This document shows positions 1-36,630 of a stretch of 37,881 bases of DNA, piece by piece. Source of the stretch: a virus. Lineage: Duplodnaviria > Heunggongvirae > Uroviricota > Caudoviricetes. The notes under the pieces were generated by a model that was given only the letters and a program-made list of their open reading frames with translations, did not search any database and was not told the DNA's origin. The stretch spans positions 1 through 37,881 of IMG/VR virus record IMGVR_UViG_2713896896_000009; one strand, written 5' to 3'. Position numbers and translations under genes: made by a program. The first letter of the stretch is position 1. Every line of letters begins with the position of its first letter.

Positions 1-1005
1 TTAATCCCCCGTGGACACAGCGTGGACACTTACGCCACCTTTCAGTGGATTAAGAGCCACCGCATCCTGCAGGTAATCCGGTGCAAAATGTGCATATGCC
101 ATTGTTTGCTGAATGGTTGCGTGACCAAGAATCTTCTGAAGCGCAATAATGTTTCCCCCATTCATCACAAAATGGCTGGCGAACGTATGCCGTAGCACAT
201 GTGCAGCCTGGCCTTTTGGCAAATCGGGTTTAACTCTTTTCAGCATCAGGCAGAATTCCCGGTACTTCACCTCAAACAAGTTGCCCGTTTCTTTGGTTTT
301 GATCGCCTCACAAACCGCCTGCGAAATTGGCACCGTCCTCTTCCGGCCATTTTTGGTTTCGAGAAACGTCACACGGTTATGAACTACCTGTTCTCCGCGA
401 AGCTTACTGGCTTCACCCCAACGCGCCCCGGTACTTAAACACAAAAGCGCAACACGCCAGTAGTCGCCCTCCAGTGTATCGAGCAATAGCGCTACTTCCT
501 TCTGGGACAGGAAAGCCATTTCTCGCGGGGATACATAAAGAATGGAGATCCCCCTTACCGGATGTTCTGCATCCCAAAGGCCTATTCTTTTCAGAACGGT
601 AAACATGCCGGATAGTCGGTTCATGTACCTGTTAGCAGATGACGGTTTCAATCCAGCAGCTATCTTTTGAGAACGCCACGCGATAATTTTCAGCTTATCA
701 AGATCCACAGCCTGCATATCAGCGCCAAGTTCATTGATTATGTTGCGCAGTTGTTTTCGGTCTTCTTCCGCCTTACGCCTGTGTTGACCGTGATACATCC
801 ACCACAACTCAAGCAAATCATTCAGTGTCCGGCGATCACGGTAGCCCTGTATGTATTCCCGCTTTTCAGCGTTCGCCATGATGTAGCGTTCAGTGGCCAC
901 CGCTACTGATTTTTTGTCAAATACCTTACGCACGCGCTTTCCCTTGCGTCCGTTCGGCCTGATGTCCAGCAAATAACGACCATCTTCGAGCTTCTTAATC
1001 GACAT
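1..1005 (-). CDS. int: Tyrosine integrase, P2 Int family
   Basis: The translation aligns along its length with P2 Int as I recall it (MSIKKLEDGRY... near the N-terminus, HxLRHTFA and AYAHFAPDYLQDA near the C-terminus). Start moved to the ATG at 1005, which has a GGAGGG Shine-Dalgarno 7 nt upstream; the track's 1020 start is a non-ATG codon. Confidence 0.93.
   Translation of the reverse strand: MSIKKLEDGRYLLDIRPNGRKGKRVRKVFDKKSVAVATERYIMANAEKREYIQGYRDRRTLNDLLELWWMYHGQHRRKAEEDRKQLRNIINELGADMQAVDLDKLKIIAWRSQKIAAGLKPSSANRYMNRLSGMFTVLKRIGLWDAEHPVRGISILYVSPREMAFLSQKEVALLLDTLEGDYWRVALLCLSTGARWGEASKLRGEQVVHNRVTFLETKNGRKRTVPISQAVCEAIKTKETGNLFEVKYREFCLMLKRVKPDLPKGQAAHVLRHTFASHFVMNGGNIIALQKILGHATIQQTMAYAHFAPDYLQDAVALNPLKGGVSVHAVSTGD
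11..29. repeat. Candidate attL core (gtggacacagcgtggacac) inside the int 3' end
   Basis: Matches 36703-36721 (gtggtcactgcgtggacac) at 17 of 19 positions, same orientation, at the two ends of the prophage gene set. Confidence 0.35.
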
Positions 1006-1101
1006 AGCGAAGCCCTCCAATGAACCGCTCTACAATCTCTCCAGCCTCTTCCCAGCAATAGTCAGACCAGACAAAGAACAGGTCTAACCAGTTTTCTGGC
1101 C

Positions 1102-4234: not shown

Positions 4235-7030
4235 GTGGCAACGGAGTACATCAGAAACTGGCAACAACCACGCCATGCAGTCGGTCGCGAGGGAACGGGG
4301 GAGCCTGTCCGCCCCTCCCTTCTTTCTTCCTGGCTGGATGCCTACCGGGCAGAGAACGAGCGCCGCCAGGAAATGGCTGATGCGGCGTTCTCCGCCGCGC
4401 CGCTGGGCAACCTGATTAATAAAAGCCTGGACGCACAGGAAAAACAGGACAAGGCCATCACACTGGCAAGAGAAGCCAGAAAACAGGCACGTGGCGCGGT
4501 GGATGAAGCAATTGCCGCACTGCGTCTGCTGCCGTCCTATCTGCGCGATCCGCTTATCCGCCATCTCTCTTTCCTGCGCAAAAAACAGGAATCTGACCGC
4601 CAGAAAGGCAAAAAGAACCAGCAGGCGGAACGCTATGCGCGCGGAACCCTGCGCAAAATATTCGACCGTCTGGCCCGCACCGACCGTCGCTGGCTGACTC
4701 CGGGTTATCGCTCCCTTGCCGGACGTGAACGTCTGGACGATTTGCTTTACCTGCCACAGCTCAACAAGCACCAGATACAGACGCTGGCCGTCATGACAGC
4801 GGCGATGTTCAGCAGCACCTTCGAAAAGCTCTGCGATGACTTTGGCGCGACCGACGGCGAGCTGACCATGGATATAACGCTGAAGGCGTATCAGATGCTG
4901 GCCCGCATGGCGTTACATCTGCACACAGTGCCGCCGCATTATGACGCACTGACAACAGACAAAGACCGGAAGAACGAACCGGACACGGAACTGCTGCCGG
5001 GTGCAATCCTTCGCCTGACCTGTGCGGACTGGTGGAAACGCAAACTGTGGCTTTTACGTTGCGAATGGAGAGAGGAACAACTCCGCGCTGCCTGTCTGGT
5101 TTCCAGAAAAACATCACCCTATCTGAGCCAGGACGCATTAAGTGAATTTCGCGCACAGCGCGAGAAAACACGCGATTTCCTGAAGAGCTTCATGCTGGAA
5201 AATGAAGACGGCTTCACGATTGATCTCGAGACGGTGTATTACGCAGGTGTCAGTAACCCGGTCCACCGTAAAGCAGAAATGATGGCCACCATGAAAGGGC
5301 TGGAACTTCTGGCCGAAGCCCGTGGCGACAGAGCGGTGTTTCTGACTGTCACCTGCCCGTCAAAATATCACGCAACAACGGAGAACGGTCATCCAAATCC
5401 CAAATGGAACGGGGCCACCATGCGCGACTCCAGCGATTACCTGGTTAACACGTTTTTTGCGGCGGTCCGCAAAAAACTGAACCGCGACGGTCTGCGCTGG
5501 TATGGCATCCGCACGGTGGAGCCTCACCATGACGGTACCGTGCACTGGCATATGATGGTCTTTGCACACCAGGACGAGATTGAAACCATCGTGTCCCACG
5601 TCTGCGATATTGCCATTCAGGAAGACCGCCACGAGCTGGGCGATGACATAACTCCGCGTTTTAAGGCGGAGTACGTAGACGGCTCAAAAGGCACGCCAAC
5701 CAGCTACATCGCCACCTACATCGGAAAGAACCTGGACAGCCGCGCCGTGGATGGCATCGACCCGAAAACGGGCAAGCCACGCGTTGACCACGAAACCGGA
5801 AAATCAATGGCCGAGAGCGTGGAACGCGCCATCGGCTGGGCGCGTCTTCACCGCGTCCGCCAGTTCCAGTTCTTTGGTATCCCCTCCCGTCAGGTATGGC
5901 GTGAACTGCGCCGCCTTGCCAGTCAGATGGCCCGCAACCCGGAAGGTCCACAACATCTGGAAAATGACGCAATGGATGCGGTACTCGCTGCCGCTGATGC
6001 CGGGTGTTTTGCCACCTACATTGAGAAACAGGGTGGCGTACTTGTTCCACGCAAAGACTACCTGATTCGCACCGCCTACGACCTCGCAGAAGAGCTGAAC
6101 GATTACGGCGAGCAAAGCGTACAGATTTACGGGATCTGGTCGCCACAAATCGGGGAATCTTCCCGCGTGTGCACGCACCCGGATAACTGGAAGCTGGTAA
6201 GACGTAAACCGGAAGTGGAAGACAGCGCCCGCGAAAATGGTTTTGACCTTCAGGGCGGCCCTGCCGCCCCTTGGACTCGTGGCAATAACTGTCCCCGTGT
6301 ACAGGAAACAGGCAACAGCGGGACAGAACAGTCGGAAGAGCAACCAACACCATGGCCGCAGATCCCTGACGGCGTTGATGTGGATGAATGGATGCGCTCA
6401 CTGAAACGGCACGAACGCCGGGCGCTGATGCGTTCGCTGCGTGACAAACAGGCAAAAAACAACAGTGATGAAATGCAGAACTGGACACAGAGCCGCAAAC
6501 AGCCGCGGCCTTTGCCTGATAACCACGAGTTACTCGCTAAAGAATGGCGGGAGTCTGCCGAATCTCTCGGCCTGCATATCGGTGAACAACAGATGCTGCA
6601 CCTGTTACGGGGCGGCAGTCTGTACGTTGACGGCAGCATCATTGCGCCGCAGGGATATGAAATTGTACGTAAACCGGATACCCGACCGGACAGCCGAATC
6701 ACGCAACTCTGGCAGCGCCTGAGTCGTAATCACAGCGTAAACAGCACGGAAATCCGCCATAACCCGGTTTCCAGCTATCTGAAACAGCTCGGGGCATCAG
6801 ACCCAGAAGCCGCCGCACGCCTGGCATCCACAATTCAGCGGGACCAGAACACCATGAAAACACCCGTTACCGTGCTTTCTGACATGCTGCGCACCATCCG
6901 TGACGCAGAGCACGCACAGAGAATCAGTGAAACCACTGAACGCGCCCGCCGCAAAGCAGACCTGCTGCGGTGGCCTGACCAGCGGAAACAAAAAACAGAC
7001 AGAAACGGGATTCACAAATCCCGTAAATGA
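4235..7030 (+). CDS. A: Replication initiation endonuclease, P2 gpA family (rolling-circle HUH initiator)
   Basis: Large ORF at the P2 gene-A position with a GTG start after GGCGGAG; contains an HxH-type motif (GTVHWHMMVF) and catalytic-tyrosine-like region (SYIATYIGKN). 931 aa, longer than P2 A as I recall it. Confidence 0.88.
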   Translation: MATEYIRNWQQPRHAVGREGTGEPVRPSLLSSWLDAYRAENERRQEMADAAFSAAPLGNLINKSLDAQEKQDKAITLAREARKQARGAVDEAIAALRLLPSYLRDPLIRHLSFLRKKQESDRQKGKKNQQAERYARGTLRKIFDRLARTDRRWLTPGYRSLAGRERLDDLLYLPQLNKHQIQTLAVMTAAMFSSTFEKLCDDFGATDGELTMDITLKAYQMLARMALHLHTVPPHYDALTTDKDRKNEPDTELLPGAILRLTCADWWKRKLWLLRCEWREEQLRAACLVSRKTSPYLSQDALSEFRAQREKTRDFLKSFMLENEDGFTIDLETVYYAGVSNPVHRKAEMMATMKGLELLAEARGDRAVFLTVTCPSKYHATTENGHPNPKWNGATMRDSSDYLVNTFFAAVRKKLNRDGLRWYGIRTVEPHHDGTVHWHMMVFAHQDEIETIVSHVCDIAIQEDRHELGDDITPRFKAEYVDGSKGTPTSYIATYIGKNLDSRAVDGIDPKTGKPRVDHETGKSMAESVERAIGWARLHRVRQFQFFGIPSRQVWRELRRLASQMARNPEGPQHLENDAMDAVLAAADAGCFATYIEKQGGVLVPRKDYLIRTAYDLAEELNDYGEQSVQIYGIWSPQIGESSRVCTHPDNWKLVRRKPEVEDSARENGFDLQGGPAAPWTRGNNCPRVQETGNSGTEQSEEQPTPWPQIPDGVDVDEWMRSLKRHERRALMRSLRDKQAKNNSDEMQNWTQSRKQPRPLPDNHELLAKEWRESAESLGLHIGEQQMLHLLRGGSLYVDGSIIAPQGYEIVRKPDTRPDSRITQLWQRLSRNHSVNSTEIRHNPVSSYLKQLGASDPEAAARLASTIQRDQNTMKTPVTVLSDMLRTIRDAEHAQRISETTERARRKADLLRWPDQRKQKTDRNGIHKSRK

Positions 7031-7103
7031 GCAAAAAACGCGCCGCGATATATGAAACGCGCACAAAACAGGCAAAAGCGGGATTTCAGAATCCCGTAAA
7101 CGA
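7007..7103. repeat. Two 24-bp direct repeats, each an internal palindrome (candidate parC centromere / operator)
   Basis: gggattcacaaatcccgtaaatga at 7007-7030 and gggatttcagaatcccgtaaacga at 7080-7103; each holds an inverted repeat (acgggatt ... aatcccgt). They bracket the A stop codon and the parM upstream region. Confidence 0.4.
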
Positions 7104-7131
7104 TTAATTAATCAACATAAGGAAAATCGAC

Positions 7132-8091
7132 ATGAAAATTTGCATCGACGACGGCTCCACCAACATCAAGCTGGCATGGACTGAGAACGGCGAACGCCGC
7201 AACGCCATCAGCCCGAACAGCTTCAAGTCGGAATGGTCTGCGCCGTTCGGTGGCACGCAGCCCGCGAACTACATGCTTGATGGCGTGCGCTATGGTTTTG
7301 ATCCGGTCAGCGATCGCTTTGTCCAGACGACCGACACGCAATACCAGTACAGCGATGTGAATGTCATTGCCATTCATCACGCGCTGGTCAAATCAGGTAT
7401 CACACCACAGGAAGTGGACGTGGTTGTCACCCTGCCACTGAGCGAGTATTTCGATACAAACGCACAGCCGGACATGGCCAACATCAACCGCAAAAAAGCG
7501 AATGTCCTGCGCCCTGTGGAGTACCAGAACGGTGAAGCATTCACTATCCGCAACGTGCGGGTTATGCCTGAATCCATTCCGGCTGGCTTTAAAGCACTGG
7601 CTGACATGAGCCCGTTTGAATCCCTGCTGATTGTGGATTTGGGCGGAACCACGCTGGATGTGGCAAAGGTTCAGGGGCAACTGGCAGGTATCAGCCAGGT
7701 GTTTTGCGATCCACACGTAGGCGTTTCTCTGATGGCCGATGCCGTACTGTCGGTGATGGCCACTAACGGTATGCGTACCAGTCACCACATCGCCAATACC
7801 ATTATTGAGCACCGTCACGATGAAGCCTGGCTACGCCAGCACATTCACAATGACGCGCATTACAACAGCCTGATGGCGGTTATTCGTGAAAAGGAGGAGA
7901 CACTAAAACAACGCGTGATCCGCGCACTCGCGGGCTTTTCGGGTTACGGGCGGGTGCTGGTTGTCGGTGGAGGAGCGGAGATTGTGGCACCCGCAGTCCG
8001 TGAAATCTATGGAGTCAATGCGAATTTCATCACAGACGGGGTGCCACAGTTTGCTCTGGTTAACGGTCTGTACGCTATGGATAAGGAGTAA
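7132..8091 (+). CDS. parM: ParM/StbA-family actin-like segregation ATPase
   Basis: N-terminus MKICIDDGSTNIKLAW...ISPNSF...YSDVNVIAIHHAL parallels plasmid R1 ParM as I recall it; 319 aa. Confidence 0.85.
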   Translation: MKICIDDGSTNIKLAWTENGERRNAISPNSFKSEWSAPFGGTQPANYMLDGVRYGFDPVSDRFVQTTDTQYQYSDVNVIAIHHALVKSGITPQEVDVVVTLPLSEYFDTNAQPDMANINRKKANVLRPVEYQNGEAFTIRNVRVMPESIPAGFKALADMSPFESLLIVDLGGTTLDVAKVQGQLAGISQVFCDPHVGVSLMADAVLSVMATNGMRTSHHIANTIIEHRHDEAWLRQHIHNDAHYNSLMAVIREKEETLKQRVIRALAGFSGYGRVLVVGGGAEIVAPAVREIYGVNANFITDGVPQFALVNGLYAMDKE

Positions 8092-8097
8092 CCCTCC

Positions 8098-8409
8098 ATG
8101 GCGACATTAACCAGAAGAATAAGTTTCTATCTGAAGCCAGCCGCCGTCAAGAACGAAGGCAAAGCATGCGCCTGGCTGGACAGCCTTACACCAGAAGCCC
8201 GCAAAAGCGGCCAACGCGTGGCTTTTCTGGCCGGGCTGGCACTTCTGAAAATGAATCCGGCAGAGGCTTACCGACTGGCTGCATGGGCTGATGATGAGGC
8301 GTTATCAGTGACACAAACCAGGGCAGAACGCCACATGTTACAGCCAGCGCCCACCGCACAGATAACCAGTCAGATAGCTGGAAATATCCGGGCGTTATTT
8401 CCCGAATAA
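8098..8409 (+). CDS. parR: ParR-like centromere-binding adaptor
   Basis: 103 aa directly after parM; FYLKPA...WLDSLTPEAR...AFLAGLAL parallels the R1 ParR N-terminus (F.LNPD...LDSIP..ER...AALTAGLAL). Confidence 0.7.
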   Translation: MATLTRRISFYLKPAAVKNEGKACAWLDSLTPEARKSGQRVAFLAGLALLKMNPAEAYRLAAWADDEALSVTQTRAERHMLQPAPTAQITSQIAGNIRALFPE

Positions 8410-8472
8410 CACAACATCAGGGCGCATCCGCCCTGATGACTTTAATCCGGGAACATAAACAAGGGGGACACA

Positions 8473-9906: not shown

Positions 9907-10953
9907 TCAGGCTGTGGGCTGGGTGTCTAACAGTGCGTAAGGGTTAAAGCGGATCACCTCTTCGCCCAGCCAGTCATTGATGTGCTTCATGGCCTCCATT
10001 ACGGGCATCAGCTCGTTAATTGCGTAAACCCGCGCGGCCTTCTCCACATCACCAAACGCACTTTTTTCACCCGGCATCGCCCCCATCAGTTGCGGCGGAA
10101 CGCGGTGCGCAGCCAGCACATCATCACGGGATGCCGCCTTAACATTCATGAACTCATCCTTTGCGGTGATCTGCTGGAACGGCAAAATTTGCACCCCCTC
10201 TTTGCCCCCGTTGGGCGCATGAATGAGCACGTTTTTAAACGCACCACCACCACGTGCACCCTGTAGCGTTTCTTTCAGGGAGTCCATGCTTTCGCGGTTT
10301 ACCTGCGCTGCACCGATGTAGATGATGCACCCGGCGTGGGATCCGTTGTCGTAATACAGTTTTCTGAACATGTCCGCCGAATGAGACAGGCTGGCCGAGA
10401 GTAATGCGCCGAGATATTCCGGCATGCCGTAGATTTCCTGGTTAATGTCAGGATTCATCAGGTGGCACACTTTACCAGGGCGAAACTGAAACGCGTCCTT
10501 ACCATCCTGCACATACCACCATGATTCAAGATCGCTTCCGCGTCGCATGTATTTCGCCAGGGCGTGCCGTAATTTAAGCGGTTCGCCGAGCATATTGCTT
10601 CGAAGCTCAAGGAATGCGTTACCGAACACAAACCAGTCCAGCGCCAGCGCCGAGAAATCCTGCCGGGAAAGCAACGGGTGCGGGATGTAGCAACCGAGTA
10701 ATACATTGCGCTTAAAGTAAAGCGCAGACTGATGCCAGGACGTTTGCCGGGCAGCTCTTGCCAGACCGTACCAGTCCACCGGGGTTTCATACCACCGCCC
10801 GTTATCAGCACAGTACATATTGTCCAGCAGGTCATGCCCGGTCAGGCGATAAGGACCATCAAATGTGAATGCACTGAGCGACGATTCTTTCCTGAGCGCA
10901 TCAGCGAGATCAATGCGTGAACTCATGCGCACTTTTTTATTTTTTCTGCTCAT
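9907..10953 (-). CDS. Q: Portal protein, P2 gpQ family
   Basis: 348 aa at the P2 Q position, transcribed away from the capsid operon; start overlaps the terminase stop (ATGA). Confidence 0.88.
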   Translation of the reverse strand: MSRKNKKVRMSSRIDLADALRKESSLSAFTFDGPYRLTGHDLLDNMYCADNGRWYETPVDWYGLARAARQTSWHQSALYFKRNVLLGCYIPHPLLSRQDFSALALDWFVFGNAFLELRSNMLGEPLKLRHALAKYMRRGSDLESWWYVQDGKDAFQFRPGKVCHLMNPDINQEIYGMPEYLGALLSASLSHSADMFRKLYYDNGSHAGCIIYIGAAQVNRESMDSLKETLQGARGGGAFKNVLIHAPNGGKEGVQILPFQQITAKDEFMNVKAASRDDVLAAHRVPPQLMGAMPGEKSAFGDVEKAARVYAINELMPVMEAMKHINDWLGEEVIRFNPYALLDTQPTA

Positions 10954-12704
10954 CAGAACTCCATAACCGTGAAACGCTCGTTTTCTCCTTCGCCGCCAAT
11001 CGGTTCGTTAATGACTGCAAGCATGGTTGCCCACGCAAGGTCGCCGTGGCTGATCCCCCTAGCACGGTCCGTTTCGTAAGTAATGAAACCACCCGCCGTT
11101 TTTACCTTACGCACGGCGTTAAAGGCCGCAACCAGCTCGCGTTCAGCGCGATCGTATTCCCACCGTCCGGCACGCATTATTTGCAGCATTTTCAGTACCA
11201 GCGACCGTTTTGATGACAGCGTGAAGGTGTACGGGATAGCCGCAGGGAAAAACCGTTTCACTATCTGATAAACAGCCTCCCCGTTCCCGCCCGTCACATC
11301 AATGCCGATGTGTTCCACGTTGTAGCGATACGTGAACTCTTCAATGACTCTGGCCTGTTCTTCAAATTCCAGCCCCTGAACGCGTCGCGTCTCCACCGTT
11401 CGAAAACGGCCACCAGGAACAGTCGGAGGAACCACCACGGACACAGCGCCGCTGTCGCCGTTGCCACTGCTGCCGTTTGCGTCATACCCAATCCATACCG
11501 GGCGATTCCCCATCGGGCGGGGAGCAAAAGGTTTCCAGTCTTTCCAGTCGTCGTATCCGTCAACACCGCAGCCAATCAGGATATTCAGGTTAAATGCCGA
11601 TTCCCCTTCGCGAACAAATTCACACATATAGAGATTGCGGAACTCGTCTTCAGTGTTATTGCGTCGGATTTTGTCAATGCTGGTTAACGTCCATCCCTGA
11701 TTGACCACATCTTCCAGCGTCACAATTTGCCGCCATATGTAGTCAGGGCAGATAAGGCCGTTATGAAGTGCATTCCAGCTCACATCAAAATGCTGACGTT
11801 TATGAGCACGAAGCCCTTCATTCCAGCGATCACCATTCCAGTATGCATACGCCTCATGTGTTTCACTTGATGGCGTGGAAAAATAGGTACACCGCAAACC
11901 ATCCAGCGTTGCCATAGCAGCGGCCACCTTGCGCAGCTCTGTGAAACGCCCCGTCCAGAAAAACTCATCAAAATACAGATTCCCCGTGTACGATTGCGCG
12001 GTGGCCGCAGAAGTGCCGAGAAAATGCATCTCTGCGCCGTTGGAGAGGATAATTTTATCGCCCCCTTTCAGCTCCACATCAACTTCAGATGCAGCCTTCT
12101 GAATGATGTTTTTAAACTGGAACGCCTGACGACGCGACGCTGACAAAAAAATCTGGTTACGCTGGTAAGGTTGTGCCACATCGTCACGTAACGCCATCAG
12201 CAGTGCTTCCTGTGCAAAATACCAGGTCGCCCCAATCTGTCGGGATTTCAGAATCATCCTGTCAGTAACTCCGGCACGCTCACAGGCACCGATAGCATCA
12301 AACCATTTGCGCTGATGTCCGGCCAGCCTGCTGGTAATTTTTTCCCGCAGTGCGGCAATCTGTTCCGGCGTGAAATGATTTTTAAGTTTTTTCGCCCGAC
12401 CTTTCTTTCCTGTGGCCTTCGCATCCGGCTGGCCATCATGCAGTTTTTTAAGCTGCCGGGTCAGCAGGTCTATTTCCTTGAAGTCACCACCTGTTTTATT
12501 CTGTTTTTCAGTGAGCTGGATGAGGCGCGCATCGATGGACTGCGTGACACGCTGCACGGGTGGCGTTTCATCCCACTGGTCGCGTTTTTTCCACGCATAA
12601 ATCGTGTTCGGGTTTATTCCCATCAGACGTGATATTTCTGCGGGCGGGTAACCCTGCCAGTAAAGTTGTCGCGCACGCTGGCGCACAAAAGCGTCCTGAA
12701 TCAT
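10953..12704 (-). CDS. P: Terminase large (ATPase) subunit, P2 gpP family
   Basis: 583 aa, co-oriented and coupled with Q; length and position match P2 P. Confidence 0.92.
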   Translation of the reverse strand: MIQDAFVRQRARQLYWQGYPPAEISRLMGINPNTIYAWKKRDQWDETPPVQRVTQSIDARLIQLTEKQNKTGGDFKEIDLLTRQLKKLHDGQPDAKATGKKGRAKKLKNHFTPEQIAALREKITSRLAGHQRKWFDAIGACERAGVTDRMILKSRQIGATWYFAQEALLMALRDDVAQPYQRNQIFLSASRRQAFQFKNIIQKAASEVDVELKGGDKIILSNGAEMHFLGTSAATAQSYTGNLYFDEFFWTGRFTELRKVAAAMATLDGLRCTYFSTPSSETHEAYAYWNGDRWNEGLRAHKRQHFDVSWNALHNGLICPDYIWRQIVTLEDVVNQGWTLTSIDKIRRNNTEDEFRNLYMCEFVREGESAFNLNILIGCGVDGYDDWKDWKPFAPRPMGNRPVWIGYDANGSSGNGDSGAVSVVVPPTVPGGRFRTVETRRVQGLEFEEQARVIEEFTYRYNVEHIGIDVTGGNGEAVYQIVKRFFPAAIPYTFTLSSKRSLVLKMLQIMRAGRWEYDRAERELVAAFNAVRKVKTAGGFITYETDRARGISHGDLAWATMLAVINEPIGGEGENERFTVMEF

Positions 12705-21126: not shown

Positions 21127-22851
21127 ATGAGCACCACAACACGAAAATTTAAAACCGTTATCACCGATACGGGTGCAAAAAAATTAGCACAGGCAGCCGC
21201 ACCAGATGGCAAACCCGTCCGCCTGACACATATGGCCGTGGGTGACGGCGGCGGTACTTTACCCACGCCAGACAGTAAGCAGACCCGTCTCGTGCATGAG
21301 GTGTGGCGACATACCGTTAATCGCGTCTTCCTGGACGCAACACATCAGAACCGCATTATTGCGGAGCTGGTTATTCCTCCAGAAACGGGCGGATTCTGGA
21401 TCCGGGAAATTGGTGTGTTTGATGAGCACGGCGATTTAATCGCGGTGGGCAATACTGCCGAAAGTTACAAGCCAACCGTTGCCGAAGGGTCCGGGCGTGC
21501 GCAAACATTTCGCACCATCCTGACCGTATCCAGCACGGCCACCGTGGCGCTTACCGTGGATAACACCATGGTGATGGCCACAGTGGATTACGTGGATGAC
21601 AAACTAAAAGAGCATGAACAGTCACGACGTCACCCGGATGCCTCGCTGACCGCAAAAGGCTTTACTCAGTTAAGCAGTGCGACCAACAGCACGTCTGAAA
21701 CGCTGGCTGCGACGCCAAAAGCTGTTAAGGCGGTAATGGATGAAACGAACAAGAAAGCGCCGCTGTCGAGTCCGGCACTCACCGGAACGCCAACCGCACC
21801 AACTGCGCCAAAGGGTACTAACAATACTCAGATAGCAAACACGGCGTTCGTTATGGCCGCGATTGCCGCACTTGTAGACTCATCACCTGACGCACTGAAT
21901 ACGCTGAACGAGCTGGCTGCGGCATTGGGCAATGACCCGAACTTTGCGACCACTATGACCAACGCGCTTGCGGGCAAGCAGCCGAAAGACGCCACCCTGA
22001 CGGCGCTGGCCGGGCTTGCTACTGCGGCAGACAGGTTTCCGTATTTTACAGGGAATGATACCGCCAGCCTGGCAACTCTGACAAAAGTCGGGCGGGATAT
22101 TCTGGCTAAAGCGACCGTTGCCTCCGTTATCGAATACCTCGGTTTACAAGAACTCGGCACGAGCGGAGAAAAAATACCGTTACTCAGTACAGAGAATACC
22201 TGGACTAATCGACAAACATTCAACGGCGGCCTTTCCGGGGAACTGTCCGGCAATGCCGCTACTGCGACAAAACTGAAAACAGTAAGAAATATTAATGGAG
22301 TTAAATTTGATGGTTCCAGCGATATAAATATTAATACGTTAGTATCTCGCAACCGTGTTACAGCATTAGGTGGAAGCGCAAAGGGTACGCCAGGTATCCA
22401 AATGTATGAAGCGTACAACAATGGATATCCTTTTACTTATGGCAATGTTCTTCATCTTACTGGCGTAGCGGCAGTTGGCGAAGGAGAGTTATTTATTGGG
22501 TGGAGTGGAACCAGCGGCGCTCATGCTCCGGCGTATATTCGCTCCCGACGAGATACCGCAGATGCTAACTGGTCTGGATGGGCGCAACTATATACAACCG
22601 CTCATAAACCATCAGCGGGAGATATTGGTGCATATACCAAAGCAGAATGCAATTCACGATTTATTACAGGTATTCGATTAGGTACAAAATCATCAGCGCA
22701 AACATGGAATGGTCCTGGCTGGGGCGATAAATCTGGTTACGTTGTTACAGGTTCCGTTAACTCAAACAAAGATGAACTTATTGATACAACACAGGCAAGG
22801 CCAGTGCAATATTGTATCAATGGCACCTGGTATAATGCAGGAAGTATTTAA
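21127..22851 (+). CDS. H: Tail fibre protein, P2 gpH family (constant N-terminus plus invertible C-terminal module)
   Basis: The N-terminal ~330 aa matches P2 H closely (FKTVITDTGAKKLA, HEQSRRHPDASLTAKGFTQLSSATNSTSETLAATPKAV); ends with a CINGTWYN motif. Confidence 0.93.
   Translation: MSTTTRKFKTVITDTGAKKLAQAAAPDGKPVRLTHMAVGDGGGTLPTPDSKQTRLVHEVWRHTVNRVFLDATHQNRIIAELVIPPETGGFWIREIGVFDEHGDLIAVGNTAESYKPTVAEGSGRAQTFRTILTVSSTATVALTVDNTMVMATVDYVDDKLKEHEQSRRHPDASLTAKGFTQLSSATNSTSETLAATPKAVKAVMDETNKKAPLSSPALTGTPTAPTAPKGTNNTQIANTAFVMAAIAALVDSSPDALNTLNELAAALGNDPNFATTMTNALAGKQPKDATLTALAGLATAADRFPYFTGNDTASLATLTKVGRDILAKATVASVIEYLGLQELGTSGEKIPLLSTENTWTNRQTFNGGLSGELSGNAATATKLKTVRNINGVKFDGSSDININTLVSRNRVTALGGSAKGTPGIQMYEAYNNGYPFTYGNVLHLTGVAAVGEGELFIGWSGTSGAHAPAYIRSRRDTADANWSGWAQLYTTAHKPSAGDIGAYTKAECNSRFITGIRLGTKSSAQTWNGPGWGDKSGYVVTGSVNSNKDELIDTTQARPVQYCINGTWYNAGSI
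22127..22154. repeat. gix-like crossover site (left) inside H
   Basis: ttatcgaatacctcggtttacaagaact is an imperfect inverted repeat of 25031-25058 and resembles Mu gix as I recall it; lies at the shared LGLQE junction. Confidence 0.7.
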
Positions 22852-22853
22852 TT

Positions 22854-23387
22854 ATGATGCATTTAAAAAATATTAAAGCAGGAAACCCCAAAACCGTAGA
22901 ACAATATGAATTAACACGACAATTTGGCGTTGTCTGGTTGTATTCTGATGACGATAGAAACTGGTATGAGGAACAGAAAAACTTTCAGGAAGATACAATA
23001 AAATTTGCTTACACAGCCGATGGAATCATTGTGGCTGTAGATAAGGATGTATCGACAATTAACCCTGAAGGTTTAAGCGTTATTGAGGTTCCCAATATTA
23101 CAGCCAATCGACGGGTCGATATTTCTGGTAACTGGATGTTCAAAGATGGCGCAGTGATAAAGCGGGAATATACCGAAGAAGAACAGAGACAACAGGCGGA
23201 AAATGAGAAGCAAAACCTGTTACAACTCGTCAGGGATAAAACCCAGCTATGGGATTCTCAGCTACGACTTGGAATTATTTCTGCTGAGAATAAACAAAAA
23301 TTGACCGAGTGGCTGCTCTACGCGCAGAAAGTGGAGTCTACGGATACCTCCGTCCTGCCAGTAACGTTTCCTGAACAACCAGAATGA
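22854..23387 (+). CDS. G: Tail fibre assembly chaperone, P2 gpG family
   Basis: 177 aa directly after H. Confidence 0.85.
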   Translation: MMHLKNIKAGNPKTVEQYELTRQFGVVWLYSDDDRNWYEEQKNFQEDTIKFAYTADGIIVAVDKDVSTINPEGLSVIEVPNITANRRVDISGNWMFKDGAVIKREYTEEEQRQQAENEKQNLLQLVRDKTQLWDSQLRLGIISAENKQKLTEWLLYAQKVESTDTSVLPVTFPEQPE

Positions 23388-23390
23388 GAG

Positions 23391-23408
23391 AAGGCCCGTT
23401 CGGGCCTT
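23391..23408. terminator. Hairpin between the convergent chaperone genes
   Basis: aaggcccg-ttc-gggcctt followed by a T-rich run on the plus strand. Confidence 0.5.
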
Positions 23409-23411
23409 TTC

Positions 23412-23948
23412 TTATTCTGGCTTTTGTGGCCATTCAGGATTTGCCGTATCCACGTGGCTAACCAGAACGCTGTAGCGTTCCCAGGCATCCAGCTGTGTAC
23501 GTTCCTCATCTGTTGCCAGATTCATCCTGACGGCACGTTCCAGCAGCTGGATGACTGATTCAGCTTCGGAAAGCAAAGCTGCTTTTTGTGATTCAGCCTG
23601 CTGTTGTAATTCATCTTCTGTATAGACTCTTTTAATTACAGCACCATCCTTAATCATCCAGTTGCCGGAAATATCAGCGCGTCGGTTTGCCGTAATATTG
23701 GGTAACTCGATCACACTCATTCCCTCTGGATTAATCAGGGATGCGTCTTTCTCTATGCAGCAAATAATACCATCCTGGTTATATGCCACTTTTAACGTGT
23801 CTGGCTGGAAATTTTTTTGTTCCTCATACCAGTTCTTACCTTCTTCCGACCATAACCAGACAACATCAAATTCTTTTGTAAGTTGATACTGTTCGATAGT
23901 TTTTGGATTTCCTGCTTTAATATTTTTTAAATGCATCATATTAAGCAC
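23412..23948 (-). CDS. Alternative tail fibre assembly chaperone (inverted copy)
   Basis: 178 aa, recognisably related to the plus-strand gpG copy ([14 protein letters not shown]...[22 protein letters not shown]). Confidence 0.82.
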
Positions 23949-25088: not shown

Positions 25089-25712
25089 GTGCTTTTGAGC
25101 GGGAGATTCAACGTGCTGATTGGCTATGTACGCGTGTCAACAAATGACCAGAACACGGATTTGCAACGCAATGCGCTCAATAGCGCAGGATGTGAACTGA
25201 TTTTTGAAGATAAAATCAGCGGAACAAAATCAGCCAGACCGGGATTGAAAAAACTGCTCAGAACGCTGTCAGAAGGCGATACGCTGGTTGTCTGGAAACT
25301 GGACAGGCTGGGCAGAAGCATGAAACACCTGATCACACTGATTGAGGAATTACGGGAAAAAGGTGTCAATTTTCGTAGTCTGACGGATTCAATTGATACC
25401 AGTACACCAATGGGGCGCTTTTTCTTCCACGTGATGGGCGCCCTGGCTGAAATGGAACGTGAATTAATTGTTGAGCGAACACTGGCCGGACTGGCAGCAG
25501 CACGCGCACAGGGGCGCATTGGTGGGCGTCGCCCGAAACTGACAAAAGAGCAACATGAGCAAATAGCAAGGTTGATTAAAAACGGCCATGACAGAAAACA
25601 ACTGGCCATAATTTACGGTATTGGTATATCGACGATTTATCGTTACCACCCCGCGGGAGAATCAACCGGAACAACAGATAAGACCAGAGGAAACAAAAAA
25701 CCGCTAATCTGA
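25089..25712 (+). CDS. Serine DNA invertase, Gin/Pin/Hin/Cin family
   Basis: LIGYVRVSTNDQNTDLQRNAL and the downstream resolvase fold with a C-terminal HTH; adjacent to the invertible segment. The start may instead be the in-frame GTG at 25113. Confidence 0.92.
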   Translation: MLLSGRFNVLIGYVRVSTNDQNTDLQRNALNSAGCELIFEDKISGTKSARPGLKKLLRTLSEGDTLVVWKLDRLGRSMKHLITLIEELREKGVNFRSLTDSIDTSTPMGRFFFHVMGALAEMERELIVERTLAGLAAARAQGRIGGRRPKLTKEQHEQIARLIKNGHDRKQLAIIYGIGISTIYRYHPAGESTGTTDKTRGNKKPLI

Positions 25713-31307: not shown

Positions 31308-31464
31308 AGTTCCAGCCCCTTGTATCCGTTAAATGATTCGGCAACAATCATCACCCACCACGCGCGTAATCTCATCCCTGCGCCGTTCTTGCCGCCCGGC
31401 GACAACAAAAAGCAGTAACCACGCCCGCACACACATGCGACCATGCTGCACAGGGAGGGAGCCG
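31308..31464. promoter_or_regulatory. Divergent intergenic region between FI and D (late promoters expected)
   Basis: 157 bp between divergent starts; no Ogr-type TGT-N12-ACA site could be confidently placed. Confidence 0.3.
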
Positions 31465-32574
31465 ATGATTGACACCACCATGCAACTGTTCAACCAGAGT
31501 ACTGACCCCGTGAAGATGCCTGATTTTGATATTCTCGCGGAGGGGAAAACGCTGTCCGGTGTGGCAGAACGCCTGATGAGCCTGTCACTGACCGACAACC
31601 GGGGATTTGAAGCAGACCAGCTAACCATCACGCTGGATGATGCTGATGGTCAGTTGCAGTTGCCGCCACGGGGCGCTCGCCTGACGGTTCTCATTGGCTG
31701 GAAAGGTGAACCGCTGACAGAAAAAGGCACTTACATTGTTGATGAAATTGCTCATGAAGGACCGCCCGACAGACTGACCATTTCAGCCAGAAGCGCAGAT
31801 TTTCGGGATGAATTTAACGTCAAGCGCGAAGTATCCTGGCATGATGTGACCGTTGAACGCGTGGTGTCTGCAATTGCTCACCGATACGGCCTGAAACCGC
31901 AAATCAGCGAAATGCTGATGGATATTGAAATCGACCACGCTGACCAGACCGAAGAAAGCGACATGTCCTTCCTTACACGCATGGCGGAAATGCTGGGCGC
32001 AATCACCACGGTAAAAAGCGGTAATCTGTTATTCATCATGCCAGGTGGTGGCGTGAACGCGCAGGGAAAACCATTACCATCGTTTGCCATCACACGCAGC
32101 AGTGGCGATCGCCATCAGTTCCGCATTGCTGACCGCGAAGCGTATACGGGGGTACGCGCTTACTGGCTTGATCTTAATTACGGGAAAAAGAAAAAAGTCA
32201 GCGTGAAACGCCGTAAACCGCCAAAACCCAAAAAGGAGAAAAGTAGCAGCCGTGAAGGTGATTATATGGAAGGCGCGGAAGGCAATGTGTTTGTGTTACG
32301 CAAGACTTATCAGAACGAGCAGGCAGCAAGACGCGCAGCGGCGGCAAAGTGGCAGCAGCTACAACGCGGAGCCGCAGCGTTCTCCATCACGCTGGCGCGT
32401 GGACGTGCAGAACTCTATCCCGAAATGCATGGCACGGTGACAGGCTTCAAAAGTGACATCGACAATCAGGACTGGATTATTGCAAAAGCCGAGCACACCA
32501 TTGATAACAGTGGCTTTACCACGCAGCTTGAACTTGAAGCAAAAATCCCGGAATGGATAGCAGAAACAGAGTGA
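31465..32574 (+). CDS. D: Tail/late control protein, P2 gpD family
   Basis: ATG at 31465 after GGGAGGGA; LSLTDNRG.EADQLTITL and the FI-proximal position parallel P2 D. Confidence 0.88.
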   Translation: MIDTTMQLFNQSTDPVKMPDFDILAEGKTLSGVAERLMSLSLTDNRGFEADQLTITLDDADGQLQLPPRGARLTVLIGWKGEPLTEKGTYIVDEIAHEGPPDRLTISARSADFRDEFNVKREVSWHDVTVERVVSAIAHRYGLKPQISEMLMDIEIDHADQTEESDMSFLTRMAEMLGAITTVKSGNLLFIMPGGGVNAQGKPLPSFAITRSSGDRHQFRIADREAYTGVRAYWLDLNYGKKKKVSVKRRKPPKPKKEKSSSREGDYMEGAEGNVFVLRKTYQNEQAARRAAAAKWQQLQRGAAAFSITLARGRAELYPEMHGTVTGFKSDIDNQDWIIAKAEHTIDNSGFTTQLELEAKIPEWIAETE

Positions 32575-32764: not shown

Positions 32765-32799
32765 ATTAATCTAACACCATTGACATAGTTGAGGTTTGA

Positions 32800-34302
32800 A
32801 TGAACAAAAAGCTGTATTTATTCCCAGACTCAAACATTTTTCTACAATGCAAGGCCTTGACGCAGGTAAATTTTTCCGAGATTACTGCTTGTGATGAAGT
32901 ATGTATCATTATTACAAGGCCCATTCAGCAAGAGATTGACCGCCAGAAAGGGCAAGGTAATTCCCGCCTATCCAAAAAAGCAAGGAAGGCTGCTAGCCTA
33001 TTTAATCAAGTAGTTGATTCAACTGACATGACTCTTGTTATTCGTGAACGCTCGCCGCGAGTTTTTCTTACCATGGATCTAAGCCTGAAACCATGTGAAC
33101 AGTTATCTGAACAATTGGATTATCAGGAGGCCGACGATCGTTTTGTTGGTATTGCGGCAGGGTATTGCGCTGACGATCCAGATTCGGAGGTGGCAATCAT
33201 TACCAATGATAGCGGTCCACGTTTTTCAGCAATAAAACATAATATAATCTGCTATAAAGTGCCTTCTTCATGGTTGCTTCCTGCTGAGCCAGATGAAAAG
33301 GATAAACAAATTAAATTGCTGGAAGCTAAGCTGAAGCAATTCACTCAGTCTATGCCCGATTTCAGCATTAAAGCAGCCGATGACGAGCAATTAAATATTG
33401 TACTTCCTTATTATACAGCTTTATCTGAATATGAAGTTGATAATTTGCTTTGTCAACTAACGGATGCATTCCCATTGGTTACAAACTTTGACAATGAACA
33501 AACTACCTCACAATCACTAGAAAAAATCATCAAGTCATTTAGTCAACAGGAGTATTTCCCTGTATCAGCAGATGATATTTCTCTTTATAAAGAAAAACAT
33601 TATCCACTTTGGAAAAAGCAGTGTGAAGAAATACTGAAAAACTGTCATACTCATATTAATCCGAAGGCAATAAAATACCCGCTGTCGTTTTTATTACAAA
33701 ACACAGGTTATACTATCGCTGAACGTGCTGTGGTAACATTTACAGCAAAAGGAGATTTTCGTCTGTGTGGATTTAATTGGGAGATAATGGAAGAGCTGAC
33801 TGAAAGCAAAAGGATTGACCTACCTTCAGCCCCTACCGCACCCAAAGGAAAATGGCGTAGTGTATGTGGCGTAACAGAAAGAATGCCTTACGCTTGGGGA
33901 GCTTTGGAAACACCGCTATCCAGTATAATTTCAAAAGAAATTGGTCCTTTGTTATCTCTTACTCCAACAGAAAGGGATAAAAACGATTTTTATTATAAAG
34001 AAAAGAGAAATGTGCCAGTTCAAGTTGTATCACTGGAATGCGAAGAGTGGCGTCATCAAGTCAAAGAAGAAATATTCCCGTTGTTCGTATATACAGCCAA
34101 CAAACCAAAGAAAGTGAATGGTGCAATTGAGGTAAGAGTTGATGCAAATAACCTTACCAATCCGGTCATTAAAACATTTAAATTAAAAATAACTATAGAA
34201 GAACATAGTGCATTTTCAACCATAACAGAAATGGTGCAGACATACATTCAAGAGCAGAAGAAAAGACAGAAAAGTTCTATTAGCGCACAAATCAAAACAT
34301 GA
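32800..34302 (+). CDS. 500-aa protein with N-terminal PIN-like nuclease domain and unassigned C-terminal region
   Basis: Clean ORF with GAGG RBS. The N-terminus shows the PIN arrangement of acidic residues (LFPDSN, DEVCIII, ADDRFVG, IITNDSG). The gene is visibly AT-rich relative to flanking phage genes and is inserted between D and ogr. Confidence 0.6.
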   Translation: MNKKLYLFPDSNIFLQCKALTQVNFSEITACDEVCIIITRPIQQEIDRQKGQGNSRLSKKARKAASLFNQVVDSTDMTLVIRERSPRVFLTMDLSLKPCEQLSEQLDYQEADDRFVGIAAGYCADDPDSEVAIITNDSGPRFSAIKHNIICYKVPSSWLLPAEPDEKDKQIKLLEAKLKQFTQSMPDFSIKAADDEQLNIVLPYYTALSEYEVDNLLCQLTDAFPLVTNFDNEQTTSQSLEKIIKSFSQQEYFPVSADDISLYKEKHYPLWKKQCEEILKNCHTHINPKAIKYPLSFLLQNTGYTIAERAVVTFTAKGDFRLCGFNWEIMEELTESKRIDLPSAPTAPKGKWRSVCGVTERMPYAWGALETPLSSIISKEIGPLLSLTPTERDKNDFYYKEKRNVPVQVVSLECEEWRHQVKEEIFPLFVYTANKPKKVNGAIEVRVDANNLTNPVIKTFKLKITIEEHSAFSTITEMVQTYIQEQKKRQKSSISAQIKT

Positions 34303-34545: not shown

Positions 34546-34806
34546 ATGTTCCGTTGTCCGCTTTGTCGCGCATCTGCCCGTATCCGCACCAGTCGTCCTG
34601 AAAATGATTCAAACACCGTGCGGCAAAAGTATTACCAGTGTAACAATCTAGAATGCGGCGTATGCTTCTCAACACTGGAAGCTTTCCATAAATTCACATC
34701 GAAACACGCCTCCGGCGTTCACTCTTCAGAAGGTATCCCGTGGCATGAGCTGCCAGCTTCACACAGGGGAAACAATCAGATGAGTTTGCCTTTGCCTCAA
34801 AATTAA
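34546..34806 (+). CDS. ogr: Ogr/Delta-type zinc-finger late-gene activator
   Basis: MFRCPLCRASARIRTSR...YYQCNNLEC matches the P2 Ogr C2C2 zinc-finger N-terminus. Confidence 0.85.
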   Translation: MFRCPLCRASARIRTSRPENDSNTVRQKYYQCNNLECGVCFSTLEAFHKFTSKHASGVHSSEGIPWHELPASHRGNNQMSLPLPQN

Positions 34807-34866
34807 CAGGCAGAATTGCCGGAGTAACAAAAAAGCGATAGATTACGCGCGGGTGCCTTTCGGCTA

Positions 34867-35079
34867 ATGGCTGGAGGGAATACCCAAAGGCCGGATGTGG
34901 AAAGGCCCCGGAAAACATCTCTGTTTAACCGAGGCCCTGACCATCTAACCTTAGCAAGTGATAGGTTAGCGCCTCCACAAAAAAGGAGCAAGCGCTATGT
35001 CGCAAAAATCGCTGATAGCCATCACGTTCTGCGTGACGGTAATCCTCATCATCTGGATGCTGCACGGTTCGCTGTGTGA
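34867..35079 (+). CDS. mok-like overlapping reading frame
   Basis: 70-aa ORF overlapping hok in another frame, as in hok/mok/sok loci. Confidence 0.4.
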   Translation: MAGGNTQRPDVERPRKTSLFNRGPDHLTLASDRLAPPQKRSKRYVAKIADSHHVLRDGNPHHLDAARFAV

Positions 35080-35137
35080 AATACGGATGAGCTTCTGGGG
35101 AGCGGAGTTTGCGGCGTTCTTACAGTGTAAGCAGTAA
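34997..35137 (+). CDS. hok: Hok/Gef-family type I toxin (46 aa)
   Basis: MSQKSLIAITFCVTVILIIWMLHGSLCEIRMSFWGAEFAAFLQCKQ has an N-terminal TM followed by the Hok signature SLCEIR and a C-terminal Cys; AAGGAG RBS. Confidence 0.75.
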   Translation: MSQKSLIAITFCVTVILIIWMLHGSLCEIRMSFWGAEFAAFLQCKQ

Positions 35138-35399: not shown

Positions 35400-35732
35400 A
35401 TGGCATTAATCAAATGTCCTGAATGCCAGAAAGAGGTGAGCGATTCAGCATTGTATTGCCCTGCTTGTGGTAAACAACTACAAAAACTTAAGCGTTCATT
35501 TTTTGGACGGATCATTAAGTGGGTTTTTATATTATTTAATATTTTTATGATCTATACGCTTTTAGTTGGACTAGGAGGCACTAGTGAAATAATAAATAAT
35601 GCCACATCCGATGCCGAAAAAACCGGTGCAGTTATTGGTACAGGCTTAGGTTTAATTACCATTGGAAGCTTATGGGTTATTGGTGATATCATCATCGGAA
35701 TTTTAGTATTTCTTACTAAACCAAAGGGATAA
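35400..35732 (+). CDS. Zinc-ribbon membrane protein (N-terminal CPxC...CPxC, two TM segments)
   Basis: MALIKCPECQKEVSDSALYCPACGK followed by two hydrophobic helices; AT-rich; AAGGAGG RBS. Confidence 0.6.
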   Translation: MALIKCPECQKEVSDSALYCPACGKQLQKLKRSFFGRIIKWVFILFNIFMIYTLLVGLGGTSEIINNATSDAEKTGAVIGTGLGLITIGSLWVIGDIIIGILVFLTKPKG

Positions 35733-35736
35733 TAAA

Positions 35737-36630
35737 ATGAAAAATATAATTTTTTCTATAGGTGCATCATTTATATCAATTAGTGTACTGCCTGTTCACG
35801 CAGCAACTGAACATAAGAACTTCAATGCAGTACTCCAGTGCCGAGCAATAGAAAATAATAAAGACAGACTTTCTTGTTACGATAAGTCAATACAACCGAC
35901 TCGAACGAAAGTTGCTGAAAAATTCGAAAGCAGAGATCAATGCCCTGATGAGAAAGATGATGATAGACGTTTATCTTGTTATGATCGTTTCTTTTCTCCA
36001 ACATTTACTCCATCTGTAAACTCAAAATCTAAAACGGAAAAGCCAGTAACAACAGAGGCTCAGCAACCAAATCTTTCTGAGATATCTAAATGTCGTGCAG
36101 AAAATGATAAAGAAGCCAGACTAAACTGCTACGATAAACTATTCCCACAGGATAAAGCCGTTCAAGCTGAATCAAAATTAGAGAAAGCCACAGATGTAGG
36201 AAAATGGCACACATCCATTACTACATCGCCAATTGATGATTCGAAAAATGTAATTTTATCGTTAGAAAGTGATGATTATATCAGAACTCCATTTGGAGAA
36301 ACGGTTACTCCTACTCTGTTTATAGCTTGCCGAGAAAAGAAAACAGAAGTATTTCTTAGTTGGGATGTATATTTAGGCCTTGAACAAACCAGCATGCTTT
36401 ATCGCCTTGATAAACAGAAAGCAGTTGAGCGAAACTGGCTAGTATCTACAGATACAAAGGCTGTTTTTTATAAAGGTAATGACATTGATTTCATCCGAAA
36501 ACTAGCCAACTCAAGCAAAATGTATACAAAAATAACGCCTTATAATGAGAGCCCCGTAAGTGCAACTTTCAATTTAAACGGCCTGTCAAACGCGCTAAAA
36601 CCGCTTCAAGCTGCTTGTAACTGGAAATAG
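35737..36630 (+). CDS. Secreted protein with three tandem Cys-containing repeats and an unassigned C-terminal domain
   Basis: Signal peptide (MKNIIFSIGASFISISVLPVHA); repeats LQCRAIENNKDRLSCYDK, DQCPDEKDDDRRLSCYDR and SKCRAENDKEARLNCYDK; starts 4 nt after the upstream gene; AT-rich. Confidence 0.6.
   Translation: MKNIIFSIGASFISISVLPVHAATEHKNFNAVLQCRAIENNKDRLSCYDKSIQPTRTKVAEKFESRDQCPDEKDDDRRLSCYDRFFSPTFTPSVNSKSKTEKPVTTEAQQPNLSEISKCRAENDKEARLNCYDKLFPQDKAVQAESKLEKATDVGKWHTSITTSPIDDSKNVILSLESDDYIRTPFGETVTPTLFIACREKKTEVFLSWDVYLGLEQTSMLYRLDKQKAVERNWLVSTDTKAVFYKGNDIDFIRKLANSSKMYTKITPYNESPVSATFNLNGLSNALKPLQAACNWK

Follow-up and report, generated by a model that had tools for sequence, protein, structure and literature searches.

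A ParMRC-type segregation cassette of P88-like prophages with a candidate two-palindrome centromere

Background

Why does an integrating phage carry the gene pair with which plasmids segregate their copies? The question is raised by positions 7003-8409 of a P2-like prophage, the 37,881-nucleotide (nt) stretch of DNA from IMG/VR virus record IMGVR_UViG_2713896896_000009 that is called the window throughout. Between its gpA-type replication gene (gene A) and its portal gene this prophage encodes an actin-like ATPase, ParM, followed by a ParR-like adaptor. A preliminary description had regarded the pair as a plasmid-type partition cassette at a locus of variable and often anti-phage cargo, and had left the choice between an episomal phage and a filament recruited for other tasks, such as exclusion of incoming DNA or positioning of replication.

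The cassette is already known as an annotation and from published remarks, and the episome idea is likewise published. RefSeq names the two proteins in E. coli 'plasmid segregation protein ParM' and 'plasmid partitioning/stability family protein'. The pair was noted in P88 by Pfeifer et al. 2021 (PMC7969092) and in 'around a fourth of P2-like phages' by Rousset et al. 2022 (PMC9122126), whose supplementary tables list StbA plus Plasmid_stab_B arrangements; both papers proposed an episomal state. In the PhiSM paper the gene (ORF35) is listed as a 'fitness' factor (PMC6456863). No functional study of the P88-like cassette was found in the literature.

We judge the chances to be evenly balanced that the cassette forms a complete and functional segregation module of type II (ParMRC-type) acting on transient phage circles, and we do not think that it keeps the phage as a long-term plasmid prophage. 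Added here to the published picture are its fixation in the phage lineage apart from the variable cargo, the clustering of prophage ParMs apart from sampled plasmid ParMs, a candidate minimal two-site centromere and quantitative evidence against stable plasmid lysogeny.

Identity of the cassette

The window is collinear with phage P88 from ~2.2 kb onward and the prophage is P88-like (Xuanwuvirus). Its gpA gene is followed on the same strand, after 101 nt, by parM and, after a further gap of 6 nt, by parR, with the portal and terminase genes downstream (Table 1). The preliminary description was therefore right in placing the pair between gene A and the portal gene of a P2-like prophage that has an integrase. 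The interval that it gave, 7003-8409, begins in effect with the first of two palindromes (7005-7024) and hence comprises essentially the whole cassette.

Table 1. Positions of the cassette and of other features in the window
Feature	Position	Strand	Description
integrase gene	1..1020	-	
gpA gene	4235..7030	+	gpA-type rolling-circle replication protein, 931 aa; Pfam Phage_GPA 2.6e-127
candidate centromere/operator site 1	7005..7024	.	palindrome ACGGGATT-caca-AATCCCGT; overlaps last gene A codons; ParR binding inferred
candidate centromere/operator site 2	7078..7097	.	palindrome GCGGGATT-tcag-AATCCCGT; 73 nt downstream of site 1
conserved box ATTAATCAA	7107..7115	+	~20 nt before parM start; invariant in Escherichia/Plesiomonas/Hafnia alignment
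parM	7132..8091	+	actin-like segregation ATPase, 319 aa; Pfam, R1 ParM structure match, phrog_691
parR (stbB)	8098..8409	+	ribbon-helix-helix centromere-binding adaptor, 103 aa; Pfam, 2JD3 profile match
hairpin after parR	8415..8438	.	perfect 10-bp stem, GC-rich; T-run better on minus strand
variable cargo segment	8473..9418	+	ClpX-type zinc-finger protein, phrog_625, phrog_13916
portal gene	9907..10953	-	
large terminase gene	10953..12704	-	
hok/sok-like locus	34851..35134	+	Hok/Gef toxin open reading frame 34997..35134; sok-like RNA match 34851..35008

When the 319-amino-acid (aa) ParM was compared with Pfam, residues 1-157 matched StbA_N (7e-82, 273.5 bits, cut-off 24.6) and residues 159-316 the ParM C-terminal domain (1e-66, 224.2 bits, cut-off 27.4). 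The structure of plasmid R1 ParM, 1MWK, was matched in a PDB search by residues 2-316 (E 3.7e-92). Over 316 residues the protein is 46.5% identical to R1 ParM and has all nucleotide-binding motifs; inspection of the alignment revealed that DDGSTNIK, MPESIPAG, DLGGTTLD and GGGAE are kept, DLGGTTLD including the residue aligned with R1 D170. Matches to NCBIfam were sub-threshold only (PRK13917, 21.8 bits vs a cut-off of 417), and thus no NCBIfam equivalog appears to cover this ParM clade. PHROGs has 'partition protein' families for both ParM and ParR.

The 103-aa ParR matched Pfam Plasmid_stab_B (2e-24, 85.7 bits, cut-off 25) and, in BLASTP, R1-type ParR over residues 6-61, the ribbon-helix-helix (RHH) region (1e-8, 34% identity). 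As a single sequence it had no match in the PDB and a profile was required: a profile of prophage ParRs only matched ParR of pB171, a solved RHH protein (2JD3), at 5e-11, and the match reached 1.3e-16 when plasmid ParRs were also taken into the profile. For the predicted fold, this 2JD3 match settles the question whether ParR is an RHH protein. Judged by these profile scores, the identities of ParM and ParR are far beyond chance, and the assignment of the two open reading frames in the preliminary description was confirmed by the searches that it had proposed, both of which retrieved the respective families.

Two palindromic sites and the two ends of ParR

The order of the elements, DNA sites followed by parM and parR, is the same as in the ParMRC (parA/stb) systems of R1 and NR1/R100. 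The sites read ACGGGATTcacaAATCCCGT (site 1) and GCGGGATTtcagAATCCCGT (site 2), and each is held within one copy of a 42-nt direct repeat (6989-7030 for site 1, 7062-7103 for site 2). The exact palindrome motif occurs only these two times in the whole window. Among ~85 P88-like loci the arms CGGGAYT/AATCCYG were conserved and the central 4 nt variable. An alignment of Escherichia, Plesiomonas and Hafnia loci showed three conserved islands in otherwise diverged DNA, namely both sites and the TATTAATCAA box, with a site spacing of 72 nt in Plesiomonas and ~71 nt in Hafnia. The two palindromes are candidates for a minimal centromere that would replace the iteron arrays of R1: parC of R1 consists of two blocks of five 11-bp iterons, whereas the window has two 18-20-bp palindromes 73 nt apart. 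Minus-strand intrinsic terminators were considered as another identity of the palindromes and ranked lower, since Plesiomonas and Hafnia keep the GGGA...CCC arms and their spacing, not the stem strength or the T-run.

The protein predicted to read these sites is unusually diverse. The ~85 loci yielded 44 distinct ParR proteins, some alleles being only ~50% identical. The N-terminal TRRISFYLKP, the predicted DNA-reading strand, and a C-terminal NI-x-x-[LFM]-FP tail (NIxxLFPE in the window) are kept in every one of them, while the linker varies. A tail motif N-[IA]-x-x-[LM]-F-P at the extreme C-terminus is common to ParRs of phages, IncI plasmids, D6, integrative conjugative elements (ICEs) and integrated plasmids. 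In R1 it is the C-terminal tail of ParR that binds ParM, and its counterpart of the motif is presumably KKNAMKLIN; the R1-type copy that was fetched shares the RHH N-terminus with the window ParR and is C-terminally truncated. The window ParR is shorter than that of R1 and lacks part of the helical region that other family members keep. The DNA sites did not co-vary with the ParR allele. Taken from these alignments, the pattern fits one DNA-binding head and one tail joined by a freely evolving linker.

Ratios of nonsynonymous to synonymous substitution rates (dN/dS) within the P88-likes were 0.06-0.10 for parM, 0.12-0.17 for gpA and 0.22-0.51 for parR. Hence parM is under strong purifying selection, tighter than that on gpA.

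As to expression, no plus-strand terminator was predicted in the interval between gene A and parM. The consensus promoter scan gave no promoter call for the ATTAATCAA box, which could represent a weak promoter's -10 region or a site for another protein. The hairpin directly after parR likely ends the parMR transcription unit and blocks antisense transcription from the late operon, as far as its stem and T-run indicate.

A second stability locus

A hok/sok-like locus is located far downstream on the same phage. Its Hok reading frame is 98% identical to that of P88 (tblastn), and the Rfam sok match was full-length with 38.8 bits and E 3.5e-7, under the gathering score of 59; the scan of the window at Rfam gathering scores and the tRNA scan were empty. 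By these matches the locus is a second predicted plasmid-type stability module. With it beside parMR, both of the classical stability loci of R1, parMRC and hok/sok, would have counterparts in the P88-likes. The gene ogr (34546..34803) is its neighbour.

Proposed function on transient phage circles

In the mechanism that we propose, ParR dimers would bind the two CGGGAYT-N4-AATCCYG sites on extrachromosomal phage circles. Such circles would exist transiently, after infection and before integration, and again after excision, when monomeric circles arise from gpA-driven rolling-circle replication. ParM-ATP filaments held between two ParR-DNA complexes would push sister circles apart, whereby copies would spread through the cell and both daughters would obtain phage DNA. 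The benefit would consist of fewer abortive losses of the element and/or more efficient replication and packaging. Transcription of parMR would probably take place with, or just after, that of the early cox-to-A operon, and the hok/sok-like locus would add the killing of cells that lose the element. Positioning of replicating DNA, which the preliminary description had listed among its alternatives, is accordingly the kind of role that we favour for the predicted module. The proposal builds on an intact ParM, a ParR with predicted head and tail, two sites, purifying selection and a chromosomal location, all of them read from sequence. A more far-reaching version, in which the P2-like phages possess a ParMRC lineage of their own that uses a two-palindrome centromere, partitions or positions circles and forms an 'anti-loss kit' together with hok/sok, falls in our estimate somewhat below an even chance.

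There are two precedents. The first is srpMRC of the SXT/R391 ICEs, likewise a type II partition system on the transient excised circle of an integrating element, where it stabilises the excised, relaxase-replicated form (Carraro et al. 2015, PMC4489591). The nickase of HUH type is TraI in SXT/R391 and gpA here, and the toxin-antitoxin partner is hipAB there and hok/sok-like here (PMC4489591). SXT/R391 are ICEs and not phages, SrpM/SrpR are distant from R1 ParMR whereas the window ParM is close, and the function of srpMRC is demonstrated whereas that of the window cassette is inferred (PMC4489591). The second is the AlpA/AlpC/alpS system of Corynebacterium glutamicum CGP3, an integrated prophage that has an actin-like ATPase, a DNA-binding adaptor and sites upstream of the operon (PMC4446434, PMC5539076). 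AlpAC is expressed early after induction, joins phage DNA circles to actin-like filaments and is required for efficient phage DNA replication (PMC4446434, PMC5539076). It belongs to another actin-like family, a Gram-positive host and an unrelated phage type, and is likened here by description only.

Several points weigh against the proposed partitioning of transient circles. No convincing sigma-70 promoter for parMR was obtained in the consensus promoter scan, so that the expression regime is a guess. The window has two sites (four half-sites) compared with ten iterons in R1 parC, and the Serratia and Enterobacter relatives have instead one large inverted repeat with GGGAAC/GTTCCC ends. A complex on just two candidate sites may be too small to hold ParM filaments. 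The sites could have the function of an operator alone, or of minus-strand terminators, as which the terminator scan scores them. Binding of ParR to the sites, filament formation by ParM, when the genes are expressed and what the phage gains are all matters of prediction, and the benefit of partitioning lytic circles that are present in many copies is not obvious. Moreover, lysogenisation of the P2 type does not need replication, which weakens the scenario of circles awaiting integration.

Chromosomal location of the cassette

A different use of the cassette was proposed by Pfeifer et al. 2021, Rousset et al. 2022 and the preliminary description: together with hok/sok it would allow a low-copy plasmid prophage in some hosts or conditions, in alternation with integration. 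A complete par system and a hok/sok-like locus on one phage speak for such a dual lifestyle. However, the distribution of the cassette does not. In the 5426 complete E. coli genomes, 1449 of the 1451 places that hold it are chromosomal and 2 are on plasmids. Among 72,556 plasmids there was only one phage-sized circular record, pZ1323PEC0009-2 (NZ_CP148288.1, 34.4 kb). This record is a whole P88-like genome that keeps its integrase, which counts in favour of a circular prophage; yet its origin falls exactly at the attachment (att) crossover, as expected for an excised form or a product of the assembly graph, and we suggest that it is one of these rather than a plasmid. It also holds a Com/methyltransferase pair beside hok. 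A 1.1-kb probe of the attP junction of pZ1323 was contiguous in none of the 442 E. coli genomes that have this type of integrase and was always split next to pdxB. Two other records, 'phage 520873' and 'phage 503458', looked like possible episomes; the former is a linear piece, starting in the host gene yecA, of an integrated prophage disrupted by IS100 and was rejected for that reason.

P88 itself occurs integrated and can be induced with mitomycin (PMC5285337). True plasmid prophages with related features exist and lend the dual lifestyle some weight. The P1-like phage-plasmid D6 has a StbA/StbB pair with a ParM 46.5% identical to that of the window, and its record notes the similarity to P88 StbA; KS14, so far the only P2-like plasmid prophage on record, combines a P2-like virion module with plasmid lysogeny, using RepB and a type I ParA, not ParM (PMC3091744). 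Both D6 and KS14 have their own plasmid replication functions, whereas the P88-likes keep the integrase and are found integrated. No plasmid-type replication initiator was detected in the window scan, in the early region or in the cargo, where only gpA, in a repressor-controlled early operon, was found. Unlike R1, the window belongs to an integrating phage that replicates by rolling circle and has no plasmid replicon. Of the marks of a phage-plasmid, a plasmid-type initiator or copy control active in lysogeny was not found in these regions, and an extrachromosomal replicon is represented by the 34.4-kb circular record and the 2 plasmid places at most. Altogether, the 1449 chromosomal versus 2 plasmid places, the 0 of 442 contiguous attP junctions and the absence of a plasmid initiator argue against stable plasmid lysogeny, and the episome offered by the preliminary description is disfavoured as a stable state; we regard the dual lifestyle as unlikely.

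The left end of the window provides a further view of integration. The window begins at the integrase stop codon and does not contain the 14-bp att core of P88, GCCACCCGAAGGTG. Integrase, C-type repressor and cox (1-2185) have no DNA homology to the corresponding module of P88. To judge from these comparisons, P88-likes evidently swap integration/immunity modules and keep gpA-parMR.

A filament with another task in the lytic cycle

The filament might instead anchor replication or packaging, or organise virion assembly, with ParR acting mainly as an autoregulator. Such a task would be in line with CGP3, where the reported role of AlpC is in the transport of viral DNA and in the efficiency of replication, not in classical partition (PMC4446434, PMC5539076), and a DNA element of two sites resembles an operator more than a centromere array. 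On the other hand, the full ParR architecture is kept, including the family-wide C-terminal tail, ParM is closely related, over its full length, to a true segregation motor, and no different partner is indicated by the sequence. We therefore consider this explanation improbable and continue to prefer segregation of phage circles by ParM and ParR.

Fixation in the lineage and variable cargo after parR

The surroundings of parM were compared in 80 of the 248 IMG/VR contigs with a gene for a close ParM relative. The gpA gene was directly upstream in all 78 loci with enough flank, and parR came next in all 80. Between parM and the portal gene 42 different distances were counted, from 846 to >3100 nt, and the three genes that follow parR in the window were present in only 20 of the 80 P88-like loci. 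The hypervariable segment hence starts after parR, and gpA-parM-parR are fixed.

Phage collections gave the same result. With 91-94% identity the 1.4-kb interval was matched by 14 phage records, P88, Xuanwuvirus P884B11 and Citrobacter PhiSM among them. In ~50,000 phage records this ParM was encoded only by 14 P88-like records and, in a more distant form (46.5% identity), by D6, and a P88-type gpA (>=80% identity) was present in exactly the 14 records that bear ParM. The other 364 P2-like phage records had a gpA of <60% identity, and the ParM search drew a blank among them. In complete E. coli genomes the interval was matched in 1303 of 5426 (~24%); parMR was counted in 1278 genomes vs 1356 for the 3' half of gpA. 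Between the window and the cassettes of P88, Xuanwuvirus, PhiSM and E. coli RefSeq entries (DNA 91-98%, ParM 94-97.5% identical) nothing essential differs; the window departs from them in the int/C/cox module and in the cargo after parR. A 96%-identical ParM and a P88-like prophage were also present on a 226-kb contig of a Firmicute assembly, 'Vagococcus sp. WN89Y' (NZ_JBQPOM010000071.1), which is almost certainly an enterobacterial contamination.

The suggestion of variable cargo in the preliminary description is not borne out by these data: the cassette is fixed in the P88-likes. Neither is it core to all P2-like phages, as P2 itself and most P2-like phages are without it, in agreement with what that description had assumed. 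PADLOC assigned no defence family to ParM, ParR or their neighbours, so that a role as defence cargo finds no known family either. In contrast to the anti-phage cargo of the P2 gpA-gpQ hotspot, the cassette is not variable among close relatives and matches no defence family.

These results bear on the possibility that ParR and ParM are made by the integrated prophage and act in trans, by exclusion or incompatibility of phages and plasmids that have the sites, or on a chromosomal locus. The gpA-gpQ region, in which P2 has old/tin and defence cargo clusters (PMC9122126), would suit such a function in the lysogen, as would the 44 ParR variants with their dN/dS of 0.2-0.5 and the ATTAATCAA box if it were an independent promoter. 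However, besides the fixation of the cassette and the missing match to a known defence family, the DNA-reading strand of ParR and the sites do not diversify, which is the opposite of a specificity arms race. In addition, the palindrome occurs nowhere else in the window, and the distance between ParR and its plasmid counterparts is too great to point to IncF or IncI plasmids as targets, none of which was hit in tblastn. A function in the lysogen is in our view quite improbable.

Apart from the cassette, the slot behind it has cargo of its own. The 113-aa protein encoded after parR in the window contains a ClpX-type C4 zinc finger (Pfam 9e-18) and no AAA+ domain; such a ClpX-zinc-finger mimic could interfere with substrate or adaptor recognition by host ClpX. 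The same slot is occupied by HicAB in Serratia (locus L012, 9450-10084) and by a KAP-family NTPase in Enterobacter (L015, 9411-10757). In the ParM-less Salmonella phage RE-2010 an AIPR protein is encoded in the slot after gpA (L098, 8548-10212). The HicAB, KAP and AIPR cargo fits the known defence hotspot, located downstream of the par cassette.

Relatives in other genera and origin of the cassette

The order gpA-parM-parR-(variable)-portal is shared by P2-like prophages of Plesiomonas, Hafnia, Serratia and Enterobacter, whose ParMs are 62%, 62%, 59% and 53% identical, respectively, to that of the window. More distant relatives, with 49-50% identity, are encoded by a Dickeya ICE and a Mangrovibacter integrated plasmid. 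More than 5000 plasmid records contained a ParM, all at <=52% identity; no plasmid ParM exceeds this value. A tblastn search of plasmids with ParR returned prophage copies only, and no plasmid donor was identified.

A neighbour-joining tree of ParM with bootstrap united the Escherichia, Plesiomonas and Hafnia proteins (bootstrap 100) as well as those of Serratia and Enterobacter (100). Both subgroups came together with a bootstrap of 66, and in 26 more replicates they did so with P0023, a sequence of unplaced context, inside the group. The gpA tree was different. Hafnia gpA grouped with that of the 186-like phage SW9 (200/200), Enterobacter gpA branched deep, and the gpAs of the ParM-less RE-2010 and Kp4872-2 nested with those of Escherichia, Plesiomonas and Serratia (200/200); in none of 200 replicates were the ParM-bearing gpAs monophyletic. 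Co-inheritance of parMR with gpA at a broad scale was rejected on the basis of this disagreement. Since the prophage ParMs group together and the gpA tree disagrees, the module seems to have been exchanged among P2-like lineages and not to have been captured repeatedly from plasmids. From the trees it looks like a par module specific to P2-like phages that is swapped among their lineages.

That the cassette is an inert leftover from a recombination with a plasmid long ago, as plasmid-like prophage genes often are, with truncated ParM copies in some clusters of 188-261 aa, is extremely improbable and effectively refuted by the purifying selection on parM, by the dominance of intact reading frames (full-length clusters of 1308, 4287 and 63 members), by the conserved DNA sites and by synteny across at least 5 genera at 53-62% protein identity.

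Significance

For annotation it follows that the cassette is evidence neither of a plasmid nor of hotspot defence cargo. In about 24% of complete E. coli genomes an integrating phage is equipped with an actin-type machine of the kind that segregates plasmids. If the module indeed partitions transient circles, the paradigm of srpMRC and AlpAC would extend to a very common group of enterobacterial phages, and the first actin-based DNA segregation machine of an integrating Gram-negative phage would be demonstrated. It would then also explain how such prophages limit their loss after abortive excision, and the two palindromes would offer a natural minimal centromere for testing how few ParR sites capture ParM filaments.

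Other features of the window

Relative to P88 the window has an insertion at 32585-34506, between gpD (31333..32574) and ogr. It encodes a 500-aa protein (32800..34302) with an N-terminal PIN_4 domain in low-GC DNA, for which PADLOC gave no match; the insertion suggests a second cargo hotspot. Beyond the hok/sok-like locus follow genes for a zinc-ribbon protein (35400..35732) and for a VasI-like protein (35737..36630; VasI family of the type VI secretion system), the latter as in PhiSM ORF1, and a 327-aa open reading frame with a weak GemA match runs to the end of the window (37881). The genes of 35400-37881 are candidates for phage cargo or flanking DNA. Finally, the tail-fibre segment at 22606-23985 is inverted relative to P88 (77% identity, opposite strand) and adjoins a gene for a serine DNA invertase (25089-25712); it looks like a host-range switch of the Gin/Cin type in the other orientation.

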